Positions 39,001-45,000 of a stretch of 64,000 bases of DNA are shown here, one piece after another. The stretch's first letter is position 1; each line of letters starts with the position of its first letter. The stretch comes from Nitrososphaerales archaeon (GTDB lineage Archaea > Thermoproteota > Nitrososphaeria > Nitrososphaerales > UBA213), in the NCBI GenBank assembly GCA_965197925.1, contig CBDAOC010000020.1, positions 704,001 through 768,000 on the forward strand, read 5' to 3'. Position numbers: made by a program.

Positions 39001-42000
39001 AATATGCGATCAAATATGTTAGAAATCAGAATAAAGTTAGGCGGCAATGTTGTTGATAAAACGTCTTTCCGAGATAATTTGGAAAACATATATGATGATT
39101 CACATGCCCAACTGGATCGGGAAGAAGCATAGAACAACAAGTATGTGACTTTCCTTACAAATTATTGGATTGGTCTTGTGATGAATTTCTCCTCCATCCT
39201 GAAGAATAAGAATTTAGAAAGGTTAGATCAGAACCTCCACCAATCCAGACAAAAAAAGGATATGGAATTAGCTCTCCAAGAAACAATACCTGTACTAAGT
39301 ATAATTAAGCCTTTAGGACTCAAAATTGATATGTAATGTGTAGGGTAAACGGGTACAATACCAAGGTAATAACAAATTTAAATAGAAATTTAGAAGATCT
39401 GGTTGATAGAATGATGATGCGTTTTTCATATGACATCGTATGTGAAATACAATGAGCTCGATGGAACAACCCTCGCCAAGCCAAGAGGAAGAGGTTTTTG
39501 AGTGGGCATTAGACCCTGCTACAAATAAATGGGTAAAAATAACGATGGAGAATGCTATGGGTAGAAAATGTGGCCATTGTGGTTGTAATTGCTCATGTAA
39601 ATGTCCTTGTTGTAAGAAAATGTGTTGTACTATTAGTAACGAAGAATCGGCCAGTTAAAGCAGCAGTACAAAGCTCAATCATTTACTATGTTTATATTAT
39701 AACGATTGAATGATCCGTAAGCCTATGTCTAAATTCTGAATGAGAGTGATATGCAACAAATCGGTAGAGGTTTGTTCTTTTTAATCGAAATATAAAAAGC
39801 CCGCTTTTTTCAAATTGTATTCATGGATTTCTATGATTCAACTATGTTTATATTAAATGAATATAGCAATTATTTCCTGCACTGACTCCGGTCTTTTGAA
39901 TTTTAGCTAACAATTCCCTGAACGACCTTCTTAACTTACCTCCTTTTATATCATCATCAATCAAAGTAAGATGTAACGGGGTTATCCTTAACCCTAGAGC
40001 CACAACTATGGGATACTATACTTTTCTTAGTATTTCAGTATTAGTAAATAATATGCCTCTATTAATTAGCTTAATCAGATTCCACGGAATATAGAATTCT
40101 ATCAATTCCTTCTCTAATGAGCCCAAGGCACTCTGAATCTAGCCCAAGAATACAATAAAAAAATAATAATATTTCTTTATTTTTGACAAGATCTTCCATG
40201 GTTATATGTTAGAGTATGGAGATGTAACCATATGATAAAAGTGTCAACAGCTGTTTTCTGGTGAAAAAATGTTATATAATTTTTTAAAGAATTAGCGTTG
40301 AAACCGGTCTTGTCAAAAGCAGAAGGAGTTAATAATGATAAACATTCCTTATCATAATTCTTATGTTTAGCTTCAATTATGGTAACTCTTCTTTTATATC
40401 AGAACAAAACTTGTGTACCCACTGTCCTTTAGAATTTTTTGCTATTTCTTTACCCACTTTGATTGGTTCATTACAATCTACACATTTTCCGCTAAATCTA
40501 GCCTTCAACCTAATCAATGTAGGAAGTTGCCTAATTTGAATTTACTTATATAAGATAAAATGCTTATTACTACATGAATAAATTTTATCAGTTAAGATAA
40601 GGAGTATAATATTGTATTTTCACATGGATTCTAACTTTCCTCCGATCAAATCAAAGTTGTAAAATGACCAACTAGAGCATACTCATTTAATGAGGCAATT
40701 ATTCAATGTAAAGGTTAAGTTTTGGTGAAGAATACAACATCTAACAGAATCTAATATTTTATTTTTGCTAAACACTAGAAATGTTATTTTATTATGTCCA
40801 ATCTTCTTTGGATTTTTTCCAAATAAGCTTTCCATCAATGTAGGCATGATCAGTTTCTTCCAAAACAATATGCCATTTACCATTATGTGGAAAAATTCTG
40901 TTTAACTCTTTGACCTTCTCTATCGTAGGGTTCTTATTCATTAATGCGCCCCATCTCATGTTCGGGATTTTTGGCATTATTTCATTGATGTCCCTCATAC
41001 AACATCTCTGGAAAAATCCTTATTTAAAACCATTGTTTGACAAACTATTCAGGGTACTTGCCTATATCTATAGGTTAACTCCCTTTATGTCCTATTAAAT
41101 CCTATCGAATCACAGATAGGACCCTTACTAAAGGCATGAAAATTTTGTTATACAAATTATCTAACTCAAACAAAATCGTGATTCACATAGATACCTATCG
41201 AACTAAAGGAATGCGGCAGACCCTCAAATAGAGGGGCGACTACTTATTCCGTGCATATATAATTATCTCAAATAATTATCCTATAGTGTAAATATATTAT
41301 AATTATAAGTGTAAGAATTATAACAAACGTAGACTTATATTATAGAAATTATAACTAAGTTTATGAGACATAAAAAGGAAGTATTTAGAAGCAAAGTGAA
41401 TAGATTCGCTGAAGTGAGAACTTCACACGAATATAGATGCCATTGTTGCAATTCAACTCTCCGTAGTGGGGACGAACTTGCAGAACATATGTATGGAATA
41501 CATTTACGCTTTGGCTTCTATCTTAAGCCATTTATTTAGTAAGCTAACTAAAATCCTGTTATTATATATATTACCCCAAATTATTTTTTTTTCATTTTTT
41601 TCTATCTAACCTCTTCAACCTCTTGAATGGGTTGAGGTAATGGTTCCTATTCGTCTTATAATAAGACAATATCATTTATGGATTGATCGATCTTGTCCCC
41701 AAACACAAGTAATGAAGGATTTCAAACTGAAATGTGGTTTGTTAGAGGATAAGAGAGGGAATTCCAAGCTTTATGCTTCTATCCTTAAATGAATAAAACC
41801 TTTAGGTTTCCTAATAATATATAGAATAGAAGGATTACATCACCATCCTGTCGCTGTTATATTATTTTCCATAAAACCTGTTTCTAATCTCGCTAAAGAT
41901 CCCGTCTAAATAAGATGTGAATCGTGGTTCTCCCACGTCGTAGCCTTCAAAGGATACTTTCACCGTTGGTCTTATTATCTTCATAATTCTCCTTAAATCT

Positions 42001-45000
42001 GCTGGGGTTCCTAGTACTACCGCATCACAATCAACGGCATTTATGCTATCCTCTAGTTCCTGCAATTGAACACGGTTGTATCCCAGAGCCGGTAGCACAG
42101 ATCCAATCCAAGGAAATTTTTCATATGCCTCCCTAATAGAACCTACAGCATTATCCCTTGGATCTACAAGTTTACAGTTTAATCCCCTAGCAGCAACCGC
42201 ACCAGCACCTTCCCTGAGCTCGCCATGCGTTATCGATGGCCCATCTTCAACAACAAGTACGTTTTTGCTTCTAATCAAATCTGGGTTATCTACCGTTGCT
42301 TCTGAATTTACCTTGAAAATTTTTGCTTTATTGTTGAGTTGTGTACATGATTCCATTACCTGTTCTACCATACCAATCTCTGCAACGTTAACTTTATTGA
42401 TCACAAAAGCATCTGCTAATCTTACGTTAACTTCAGCCGGATGATACCGGGTTTCATGACCAGCCCTCAACGGATCAATAACTACTATTGTGTAATTCGC
42501 AACAATGAATGAATAATCATTATTACCTCCATCCCATATTATTACATCAAAATTCTTTTCAGCCTCCTCCAGAATCTGTTGGTAATCAACACCTGCAAAG
42601 AGCTCCACTCCCTTTGCTATATGATCTGTATACTCTTCCTCTTCTTCTACAGTTATCTTGTATTTCTTGAAATCTTCGAATGTCTTGAAATGTTGCACTG
42701 CCTCACTTAAATCGCCATATGGCATAGGATGTCTCAACACCACGGGTTTGAGATTTGATCTCCGCGCAGCATCTACTACCATTCTTGCAACTGTACTTTT
42801 GCCTGCACCAGTTCTAATCGCTAATACAGAGACAATAGGTTTTTTTGATTTTAATTGCGTATCTTTTGTGCCGAGGAGTGTGAAAGACGCCCCTGCAGCA
42901 ATTACTTTGGAAGCAATATGCATCACAGTTTCGTGTGAAATATCACTATATGAAAAAAAGACCTCGTCTATCTCATGCTTCTCTATGAGTTCAACCATAC
43001 TCTGTTCGTTATAAATCGGTATTCCATTTGGATACATGCTGCCTGCCAATTCTGCCGGGTAGATTCTTTTTTCTATGTTAGGAATTTGTGTTGCCGTGAA
43101 CGCTACAACGGTATAGTATGGATTCTTGCGAAAGAACATGTTGAAGTTATGAAAATCTCTCCCAGCTGCACCTAAAATGATAACTTTCCGTGGCACGCCA
43201 ATCAAAATAGAATACAACTATTGGTATTATTAATTTATCATCAGTAGATAATTGTACCGGAATTACCCATTACTGCATCCCTTAACTTATTGAGATTGAC
43301 TATTATTGCTTCATGACCAGTATTCTCAACGAATCTGACAGCTGCTTTCACTTTTGGTCCCATGCTACCCTCCTCAAACTCTGATCTTTCCAACAATTTT
43401 CTCATTTCAATCATCTTGATCTTTCTACGGAGCTTCTTGCTTTTAGTTCCATACCGCAAGTAAACACCATCTACGTTGGTCAAACTGACAAATTTTGATG
43501 CGTTTATACCTGTCGCAAGTCGCTCACTGGCCAGGTCTTTATCGATTACGGCATTGGCAAATCTCAATTTCTTATCAGCTAGCACAGGAATTCCTCCACC
43601 ACCAACGGTCACTACAACGTAGCCTTGGTTAACAAGATCCCTAACAGCATCAATCTCTATTATAGAGACAGGATCAGGTGATGGCACAACTCTTCTATAG
43701 TGGTTAGGAGCAACTTCCTTAACTGCAAGAAATGCATTCTCTTTCATCATCATCTTTAAATCATTTTTCGTAAAAACCGGACCAACCGGTTTTACCGGAT
43801 CCTTGAACGCAGGATCTTGTTTAGAAACAATAGTCTTTGAGATCAAGCTAACAATACCGATTCGCTTGCCAAACTTGTTTAAATGATTTAGCAAGGATGT
43901 TTGGATCATAAATCCCAGCAACCCCTGTGTTTCTGCAACACATGCGAATAGTGGTAATGGGGGCACAAGTTTTTTTGCTGAGTCATGTCTCAACAAATCA
44001 TCTCCTACCTGTGATCCGTTACCATGTGTAATAACAATTCTGTAACCTTCAGTTACAAGGTGGGCGATCCCTTTGGTTGCTGAATAAATTGTTCTGTATT
44101 GTGAATCGAAAGTTCTGGATTTGCTCATTATGGCATTTCCACCGAGTGCTAAAACAACTATCCCCTTTTGCAATTGCAATGGTGATTAACAATCAGTATT
44201 TATTATGACTAGTCTACATAATTTGGACATTTCGATAAATACAAGTTATACTTGTTAATTGGAGAAGATGCTTCAGCTAGAAAATTCATCTATTATTTAG
44301 ACTTCCCTATACAGTTCCCTTAAAAAGTACAGGCCCTACCATCACACACTGATTATACTATCGATGAGGAATGTTACCTGTCTTGAATTACTCTCAACAA
44401 ACATACTATTGAATATCATCTCAAAACCGGAACATAAAGGTGAACTAGAATGGGAAATTGTCATGTTAATTATCATTGATATTGGACAACAACATATACT
44501 AACTTAGGTCCAAGATATTCCAGGTATCAACTGTCTCATCACTACACTACTGTCAGTGCCCTTACCACATCAGTCTTTGTAACTATACCATTCAAATTGT
44601 TATCAGAGTTAACTGCTGGGAGACCGCTTATCCTATTATTAACCATCATTTGCGCCGCCTCTGCCAGATCCAGATTCTTCGTAACAGTTATTGGGTCCCG
44701 CCGCATTACATCTCTTGCTAACAAAACATGACTGATACCTGATAAAGGAGCAGTCGACTGTCTTCGTGACATGGAAACCTCGGTGGGCAATCCACGGGTA
44801 TCTTCTTCTATCATTGTACTAATTGGCAGGAGATCATGTCCTGTGACGATACCTATAGGTTTCTGACCTTTAACCACAATAACTCTCGATACTCTATTTC
44901 CCATCATTGTAGAAATTACTGTGTGTATAGAATGGCTAGGCATTACCGTTAACACCTTCTTTGTCATGTAATCCTTTACACTGTTTTTCGCTGCATAATG

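Follow-up and report, generated by a model that had tools for sequence, protein, structure and literature searches.

An arginine pathway comprising the ATP-conserving enzyme ArcE (TK2200) along with ArcB (TK0871) and ArcC (TK2158) has been described in Thermococcus kodakarensis (PMC11032458, PMC13260591), and PMC11032458 makes a case for a catabolic ArcE in genomes that also possess ArgG, ArgH and CPS. Both the pathway itself and the occurrence of ArcE in one ammonia-oxidizing archaeon (AOA) are known from that paper. In its SI Table S1, the row of Candidatus Nitrosocaldus cavascurensis reads arcA 0, arcC 0 and arcE 1, Nitrososphaera viennensis has arcC only, and no AOA row has both arcC and arcE. 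ArcE homologues of Nitrosococcus and Nitrospira are named in the main text, the available portion of which takes up no function of ArcE in ammonia oxidizers.

The locus considered here lies in a window of 64,000 nt, the whole stretch of DNA that was analysed, from the genome of a Nitrososphaerales archaeon that possesses amoA. The carbamate kinase (CK) gene arcC (43241..44173, minus strand, 310 aa) starts with the TTG at 44173, a second in-frame TTG at 44179 being an alternative, and lies 44 nt upstream of arcE (41862..43196, minus strand, 444 aa, GTG start at 43196), which encodes a P-loop enzyme of the arginine synthetase family and whose stop-to-first-start frame extends to 43217. Each gene occurs once in the genome and has an open frame, and the database gene calls had the same lengths (P0241, 310 aa, with the identical arcC start; P0245, 444 aa). 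An assembly of public run X5, from a separate study, matched positions 37665-45999 with no differences. In run X11 the 5' part of arcC was sparsely covered, missing cover being no evidence. A TATA-like AT-rich box 30 nt upstream of arcE (43227..43239, minus strand), picked by eye, is probably arcE's own promoter; similar boxes lie 22-24 nt upstream of arcE in three relatives (G001, G002 and G006), in two of which arcC does not adjoin arcE. A scan with a sigma-70 promoter model, which is unsuited to archaea, returned fewer sites than shuffled sequences did. In an RNA run, a single 255-nt contig matched arcE exactly, pieces of IS elements were covered too, and such contigs cannot demonstrate transcription.

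The segment is bracketed by a direct pair of IS4/IS5-family elements (36803..37694 and 46125..47011, both on the minus strand; 96% identity over 894 nt). This arrangement may be due to chance, because 51 near-full copies of the element occur genome-wide. Despite the bracket, a recent horizontal gain of the two genes was ruled out by the ArcE and CK trees described below and by their typical GC3 (0.34 and 0.36, against 0.35±0.065 for the genome).

The initial annotation had named the two products ArcE and carbamate kinase, and both identities were borne out. ArcE shared 52.8-54.1% identity over 430-436 aa with five full-length Thermococcus-type proteins, TK2200 itself not being among the proteins compared. 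Two of the five (54.1% and 53.8% over 431 aa) agree at their N- and C-termini with the translated TK2200 primers. It keeps 131 of the 140 sites conserved in at least 90% of 85 outside homologues, and its Walker A motif is intact, with R128, G130, K133 and S134 invariant. The predicted structure (pLDDT 91.7) matches the fold of LpxK (4ehy), as has likewise been reported for TK2200. Its best fold match was cyclic 2,3-diphosphoglycerate synthetase (8oru/8ork; Foldseek E 4e-17), a name that some databases give to ArcE-family proteins. This identity was rejected, as phmmer found no match at E≤10 and the structural match had 14-15% identity, against 54% to Thermococcus ArcE. NCBIfam holds no ArcE model, and the ESM Atlas returned solely clusters labelled 'putative GTPase'.

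For CK, the top PDB matches were all carbamate kinases (best, 1e19; E 1e-76), and the protein scored above the cut-off of NF009007 (293.4 bits; cut-off 266) but below that of TIGR00746 (323.5; cut-off 358.25). The motifs LGGNA (at 10), KPVGP (at 128), VIDKD (at 209) and GSMGPK (at 269) are present, and counterparts are retained of the catalytic residues K128, K209, D210 and K271 and of the Gly-Gly-Asn loop described for efCK in the accessible text of PMC3659122. The invariant HGNGPQVG motif of the carbamoyl-phosphate oxyanion hole is not preserved: Asn52 and Gly53 are in place, but Ser replaces Pro54 (P54S), which is present in all 157 other sequences with a residue at this position. The same text names the Asn and the Gly of the oxyanion hole and not the Pro. 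CK retains all the other catalytic motifs, and the 1 of 76 conserved sites that it lacks is no more than the median. A strain variant carries G53E, and on two contigs of close relatives CK lies in pieces of 86, 123 and 123 aa while ArcE is full length; these fragments may stem from long-read errors. The description of the pair as intact holds for the two open frames, but CK carries P54S and is fragmented in the closest relatives. CK was also missing in eight of the nine ArcE-positive sister-family genomes, and T. kodakarensis was little affected by deletion of arcC (PMC13260591). The CK half looks dispensable, probably an accessory on its way to loss in this lineage.

Among genomes at least 80% complete, ArcE was carried by 9/10 sister-family members and, in the two main AOA families, by 1/65 and 4/64; it was found in 3/8 other genomes of the archaeon's own family. 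Earlier counts of 3/5 and 7/8 for its own and the sister family are corrected accordingly, and its reported absence from the two main families (0/8 and 0/7) becomes rarity. In a tree built with a lighter model from 82 rows chosen among 241 sequences, AOA ArcE proteins formed a single clade (SH-aLRT 99), including those labelled Nitrosocaldus, nested among non-oxidizing Nitrososphaerales. In the CK tree, the CK proteins partnered with them formed a matching single clade (99). These two clades, and the nesting of ArcE among non-oxidizing relatives, are new. They point to inheritance of arcC and arcE from the AOA ancestor followed by wide loss, the pair having been lost in 4/7 family genomes and in most AOA. 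The best ArcE tree placed this family apart from the Nitrosocaldus-like family, with the alternative grouping not rejected (p-AU 0.124); the species tree of the Nitrosomirales paper groups the two.

The remaining genes of the proposed route, from arginine through citrulline, ornithine and proline to glutamate, had been correctly identified, and the route is possible in principle. The genome possesses OTCase, an NPN-type ornithine cyclodeaminase (TIGR00300 type), ProDH/P5CDH, glutamate dehydrogenase and LarC, and CPS, ArgG and ArgH are present as annotated. Arginine deiminase (ADI/ArcA) was found in none of the five genomes tested and classical ornithine cyclodeaminase (PF02423) in none of five; the set of ArcE, OTCase and CK without ArcA is thus complete. 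The downstream genes are not tied to ArcE: OTCase is a single ArgF-type enzyme required for biosynthesis regardless, and in the two main AOA families ProDH occurs in 26/65 and 45/64 genomes, nearly all of them ArcE-negative. ProDH was accordingly discarded as a marker of the pathway (14/17 ArcE-positive and 71/129 ArcE-negative AOA genomes). proDH and P5CDH directly adjoin arcC-arcE in one genome (G149), and at the AOA loci examined arcE was never clustered with arcB or a transporter.

Concerning direction, the T. kodakarensis enzyme has a Ks for NH3 of 3.7 mM and responds sigmoidally to ADP. A Keq of 10.1, measured like the kinetics at 80 °C on an enzyme other than AOA ArcE, gives citrulline/arginine ratios at equilibrium of 10-1700 at 0.01-0.1 mM ammonia, and near balance at about 1 mM intracellular ammonia. 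Ammonia is the scarce energy substrate of this organism, and catabolism appears the better bet.

Taken together, the sequences, gene inventory, distribution and trees favour, somewhat better than evenly, an ancestral catabolic ArcE that serves in arginine salvage or as a low-energy valve, with CK as an accessory that is being lost. Activity, direction, regulation and substrate source would then be as follows. ArcE, gated by ADP, would convert arginine, ADP and Pi into citrulline, NH3 and ATP, with arginine derived either from the turnover of proteins or from peptides taken up. OTCase would split citrulline into ornithine and carbamoyl phosphate; ornithine would pass to proline through the NPN-dependent cyclodeaminase and on to glutamate, and carbamoyl phosphate would enter pyrimidines or, where CK still works, yield ATP, NH3 and CO2. 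The ammonia set free would be a side product; it could feed AMO, though it is unlikely as a main supply. A bolder version, which we regard as doubtful, holds that the pathway gave the AOA ancestor oxygen-independent substrate-level ATP and that its keepers (the Nitrosocaldus-like family, this family and a few genera from soil and freshwater) live through anoxia or ammonia starvation by fermenting arginine, making their own ammonia; here host peptides would supply the arginine and the enzyme would be an AOA-specific form.

A stronger claim for nitrogen supply, that the cell imports arginine or peptides, draws as many as four N from each arginine for AMO, gains 2 ATP through substrate-level phosphorylation and so offsets the lack of urease, is rather unlikely. 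In its favour, a gene is present for each step, including glutamate dehydrogenase and LarC, and urease was not found in this 98.7% complete genome, either by family search or by tblastn with five urease-operon proteins; cyanase and pyruvoyl arginine decarboxylase (PdaD) were not found either. ABC systems of the Opp (peptide) and Liv kinds are encoded. With about 279 IS-like places in the genome, a Liv operon of a kind given as typical for sponge AOA in PMC6790972, and short exact contigs in an RNA run that carries the label sponge metagenome, the organism looks host-associated and is probably sponge-associated. However, arcC, arcE and full-length urease occur together in two of the three family relatives that carry the pair (G001 and G002; only G006 and this genome are urease-less), so that urease complementarity was rejected and a role as urease substitute is not supported. 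The pair is ancestral rather than acquired where urease vanished, and the apparent erosion of CK falls in just this lineage. As the annotation had stated, no arginine importer was found: PF13520 (APC) had no match, tblastn with four APC proteins and one SSF protein of relatives had none, no polar-amino-acid cluster was evident among 15 ABC ATPases, and 38 of the 65 strongly hydrophobic ORFs were scanned.

That the pair is a decaying relic in an IS-ridden symbiont genome, now without meaningful flux, seems improbable. The CK variants and fragments, the IS bracket and the losses across AOA would fit decay, and arcE itself may be affected, because the ArcE of a close relative (P0001) carries G132R in the P-loop. 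Against this, both frames are open with genome-typical codon GC, and ArcE departs from the AOA-conserved residue at 1 of 133 sites (the other sequences have a median of 0, and 56 of 122 have at least one change). Faster evolution was not seen, the branch ratios of arcC and arcE (both 1.34) falling within those of OTCase, CarB and ArgG (1.25-1.38), with ProDH and the cyclodeaminase at 0.83-0.96.

The residues of AOA ArcE bear on another reading, in which the enzyme has shifted to a different guanidino substrate or role, for instance a polyamine-linked one. E190, present in 99% of outside homologues, is not kept here, and E186 is AOA-specific: E186 with a residue other than Glu at 190 was found in 17/17 genome-labelled AOA proteins, whereas among non-AOA proteins E186 occurred in 0/104 and E190 in 103/104. 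This change, common to all AOA ArcE, could alter the substrate, but a swap of i and i+4 on one helix may just relocate the same carboxylate. A LysA-like PLP decarboxylase adjoins or lies near arcE in four genomes (G150, G171, G213 and G024), yet its best matches are diaminopimelate decarboxylases. At family level, a common ArcE goes with a rare pyruvoyl arginine decarboxylase (the latter in 0/10 and 1/7 genomes, against 65/65 and 52/64 in the other two families), though these four families are not independent and four genomes carry both enzymes (G002, G149, G150 and G213). CK is also retained as partner of the AOA enzyme. A shift of substrate is very improbable. About as improbable, where ammonia is scarce and CPS, ArgG and ArgH are all kept, is a biosynthetic role in which ArcE and CK use free ammonia, when plentiful, to build arginine and carbamoyl phosphate more cheaply in ATP than CPS and ArgG/ArgH; it draws on an equilibrium near 1 at about 1 mM ammonia and on the reversibility of ArcE, which supported arginine synthesis in vivo upon added citrulline and ammonium (PMC11032458), but NH3 has a Ks in the mM range and the T. 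kodakarensis CK was unable to supply carbamoyl phosphate (PMC13260591).

An arginine pathway that yields ATP and dates back to the AOA ancestor would be a concrete, testable case for two open questions, namely the range of organic nitrogen compounds directly usable by AOA and the means by which AOA get through a lack of oxygen or ammonia. The analysis also corrects the labels 'GTPase' and 'cDPG synthase' on more than 100 database proteins. The surprise is limited, the pathway being known, ArcE being tabulated for one AOA already, and the urease-replacement story failing.

Compared with the arginine deiminase pathway (ArcA/ArcB/ArcC, often with ArcD), the route here likewise takes arginine to ornithine, 2 NH3 and CO2 overall and shares OTCase and CK, but no ArcA and no APC-type antiporter was found, and its first step is ATP-conserving and reversible. 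For symbiotic sponge AOA, a release of ammonia from arginine, with Liv and peptide uptake, has also been proposed, through agmatine and urea (PdaD, SpeB and urease; PMC6790972); that route is closed in this genome, because neither PdaD nor urease was found, although agmatinase is present. A catabolic CK also operates in AOA purine degradation, as AllK with the oxamic transcarbamylase AllFGH (PMC12625717). Here CK travels with arcE, and service to AllFGH was ruled out, as AllG was found neither in this genome nor in four relatives. Ca. Nitrosocaldus cavascurensis is likewise a nitrifier with ArcE, whereas here arcE is paired with arcC. The T. kodakarensis pathway shares the ArcE type (54% identity), CK, a single OTCase and the lack of ArcA (PMC11032458 and PMC13260591). 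Unlike that organism, the host here is an aerobic chemolithoautotroph for which the released ammonia is the energy substrate, its ArcE has E186/x190 and its CK P54S, and its carbamoyl-phosphate supply is independent of ArcE because CPS and ArgG/ArgH are kept.

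Two minus-strand genes made up the locus: arcC (43241-44173), encoding a carbamate kinase (CK), and, 44 nt downstream, arcE (43196 to 41862), encoding a 444-aa arginine synthetase-type protein (ArcE) with a GTG start. The initial annotation had placed both ORFs here, as confirmed by the open frames, by database gene calls with the same starts (P0241 and P0245, respectively) and by the assembly of another public sequencing run (X5), which spanned 37665-45999 with 0 differences from the window. Each gene was single-copy in the genome. The top PDB matches of CK were carbamate kinases only (1e19, E 1e-76); for the arcE product, Pfam gave only a weak CobW match, and neither an NCBIfam family nor a PDB sequence match was obtained. 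Metagenome contigs were searched with a pattern combining the TK2200 forward primer and the protein's N-terminal motif, yielding eight Thermococcus-type loci, five of them full length. The window ArcE was 52.8-54.1% identical to these five over 430-436 aa, and two proteins of the set had ends matching the TK2200 reverse primer; the 53.6% identity over 431 aa previously given for T. kodakarensis ArcE was thereby reproduced with primer-matched proteins rather than with TK2200 itself. The AlphaFold model (pLDDT 91.7) matched cDPG synthetase 8oru (14% identity) and LpxK 4ehy, and for TK2200 a structural match to 4EHY and a distant relationship to cDPG synthase have been described (PMC11032458).

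The pair was flanked, also on the minus strand, by genes encoding a CDGSH iron-sulfur/Fer4_19 protein, a universal stress protein (Usp) and a four-CBS-domain protein, at 35318-35986, 38485-38922 and 44542-45393. Usp genes, recognized by N-terminal sequence, flanked arcC-arcE in genome G149 too, and such neighbours hint weakly at a stress or low-energy context. Convergent with arcE lay a 58-aa ORF (41363-41539, plus strand) with a C2H2 zinc-finger-like pattern, crossed by an exact RNA-run contig at depth 10.

The genome, 2.9 Mb at 98.7% completeness and 5.4% contamination, carried amoA, one ArgF-type OTCase, CPS, ArgG, ArgH, a TIGR00300 nickel-pincer ornithine cyclodeaminase with LarC, ProDH, P5CDH, glutamate dehydrogenase and, among scanned proteins, one Amt. 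Searches of it for urease, arginine deiminase, cyanase, AllG, and APC and SSF transporters found none. Its 15 ABC ATPases grouped with Liv, Opp, Opu, Tau-like, Pst, metal and export systems, with no polar-amino-acid cluster evident around them, and a Pfam scan of 38 of 65 strongly hydrophobic ORFs and some weaker ones gave no arginine carrier family. The gene identities and pathway genes noted initially were confirmed. A Tau/Ssu-like ABC cluster (L228:12724-17603; G000:C20:974723-979602 in the window genome) comprised two permeases, two ATPases and a 456-aa protein with a twin-arginine-signal-like sequence and no Pfam or NCBIfam match; it may act on an organic compound containing N or S. As to agmatine (loci G000:C20:165293-166636 and C20:97058-97834), an agmatinase was present and neither a pyruvoyl arginine decarboxylase (ADC) nor an AdoMet decarboxylase was found, the sole candidate for an agmatine-forming enzyme being a LysA-like PLP decarboxylase. 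Pyruvoyl ADC was also missing in 6/7 other genomes of the family (f1) and 10/10 of its sister family (f8).

All nine genomes of family f1 carried amoA, as did genomes of three other families in the order. Names on co-clustering proteins link f8 to Nitrosocaldus and the two main families of ammonia-oxidising archaea (AOA), f12 and f15, to Nitrosopumilus and Nitrososphaera, so that f1 is, by elimination, probably the Nitrosomirales lineage, which is abundant in some sponges (PMC10811736). About 279 IS-like places, a Liv operon, described as typical of sponge AOA (PMC6790972), and exact 158-255-nt contigs in an RNA run labelled sponge metagenome together suggest a sponge associate. The element bracketing arcC-arcE had 51 near-full copies in the genome.

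Since CPS and ArgG/ArgH are present, as noted before, ArcE is not needed for synthesis. The computed equilibrium citrulline/arginine ratio, from a published Keq of 10.1 (80 °C value) with assumed ATP/ADP and Pi, fell from 10-1700 at 0.01-0.1 mM ammonia to 1-17 at 1 mM, and the Thermococcus enzyme, with a Ks for NH3 of mM order, is active only at high ADP (PMC11032458). On these grounds we lean towards a catabolic arginine salvage gated by energy charge, in which arginine from turnover or peptides would, when energy charge is low, yield ATP, ammonia, ornithine and carbamoyl phosphate, the CK step being optional. An earlier caveat took PMC13260591 to show the biosynthetic direction; that paper instead shows ArcE/ArcB supplying carbamoyl phosphate via arginine breakdown, with little effect of arcC deletion.

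Across 251 genomes of the order, each at least 80% complete, ArcE occurred in 3/7 f1 genomes (plus the window genome), 9/10 f8, 1/65 f12 and 4/64 f15 genomes, as well as in several families whose tested genomes lacked amoA (e.g. 24/58 in f9). CK occurred in the same three f1 genomes, and in 1/10 f8, 1/65 f12 and 12/64 f15 genomes, several f15 matches being other CK types. Tallies for pyruvoyl ADC and ProDH, and probably for ArcE and CK, take in two unpublished genomes (G247, G254), on neither of which any conclusion depends. The two genes were adjacent in the window genome, G001, G149 (with proDH and P5CDH immediately beside), G150 and G156, separated by 4 kb in G002 and located on two contigs in G006; a LysA-like decarboxylase lay next to or near arcE in G150, G171, G213 and G024. 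CK frames of 626-645 aa occurred in f15 genus g51 (G123:C10, G141:C1:1360825-1362708, G171:C10:63302-65191, G222:C41), the matched halves in the first three standing ~300 residues apart, between query positions ~144 and ~152. A 460-aa tubulin/FtsZ-family protein was encoded at L214:1756-3135 (G000:C17) and L109:10358-11755 (G002), in G002 between arcC and arcE.

Urease matches were found in five of eight family relatives, at full length in three. Presence of the pair did not follow the loss of urease, since G001 and G002 have arcC, arcE and full-length urease; the initial tie of the pair to the lack of urease accordingly fell, and arginine as a true organic-nitrogen and energy source, replacing urease, is unlikely. 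In both genomes (L247:9524-14225 in G001, L246:2418-7143 in G002) the urease operon was immediately preceded by genes for an SSF symporter and a ~417-aa ureohydrolase, below agmatinase cut-offs and about equally matched to guanidinobutyrase 3nio, 7esr and 9fek (the latter two presumably guanidinases), which may supply AOA urease by hydrolysing a guanidino compound.

That the pair is a decaying relic appears rather improbable. CK has Ser where Pro stands in 157/157 others, at a site adjoining the Asn-Gly oxyanion hole (PMC3659122), and a strain variant additionally carries G53E; on two contigs, taken from their lengths as those encoding the full-length ArcE proteins P0001 (with G132R in the P-loop) and P0246, CK is in 123- and 86-aa pieces, which could be long-read errors, both 123-aa pieces sharing one start position. 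Against decay, the catalytic lysines and aspartate are retained in the window CK, whose count of missed conserved sites does not exceed the median and whose evolutionary rate matches that of core genes, and ArcE, altered at 1/133 AOA-conserved sites with a relative rate like that of OTCase, CarB and ArgG, is by these comparisons not degraded.

In quick LG+G4 trees built without a species tree (82 rows for ArcE), AOA ArcE formed one clade (SH-aLRT 99) within one of non-oxidising Nitrososphaerales (100), f8 branching first, next f1, then f12+f15; an f1+f8 grouping was not rejected (p-AU 0.124). Partner CKs formed a matching clade (99), and codon GC of both genes was ordinary for the genome. Inheritance from the AOA ancestor followed by repeated loss would be the simplest reading. 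In the window genome, G001, G002 and G006 a similar AT-rich box, judged by eye, stands 22-30 nt before arcE, also where arcC is not the upstream neighbour, which makes a separate arcE promoter probable. All 17 genome-labelled AOA ArcE proteins combine E186 with a non-acidic position 190, versus E186 in 0/104 and E190 in 103/104 non-AOA proteins. This may mark a changed substrate, which we consider very unlikely, or a harmless one-turn carboxylate shift. Least likely is ArcE run biosynthetically, given CPS, ArgG/ArgH and the mM Ks for NH3 in Thermococcus.

Our literature search, with most subscription papers outside its scope, returned no paper on an ArcE/carbamate kinase arginine pathway in ammonia oxidisers; the main text of PMC10811736 mentions neither arginine nor carbamate, and 12 of its 14 supplements gave no match (files 13-14 may bear on it). 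Other AOA and CK literature was drawn on (PMC6790972, PMC12625717, PMC5797428, PMC3659122). Overall the initial observation held and its interpretation did so in part; the useful outcome is a pair probably ancestral in AOA, an arcE able to stand alone and a pathway open to direct test. The ArcE pathway was described in 2024, and the available part of that paper tabulates arcE for AOA without discussing it: arcE without arcC is listed for Ca. Nitrosocaldus cavascurensis, arcC without arcE for Nitrososphaera viennensis and both for Caldiarchaeum and Conexivisphaera, and Nitrosococcus and Nitrospira are named for ArcE (PMC11032458).
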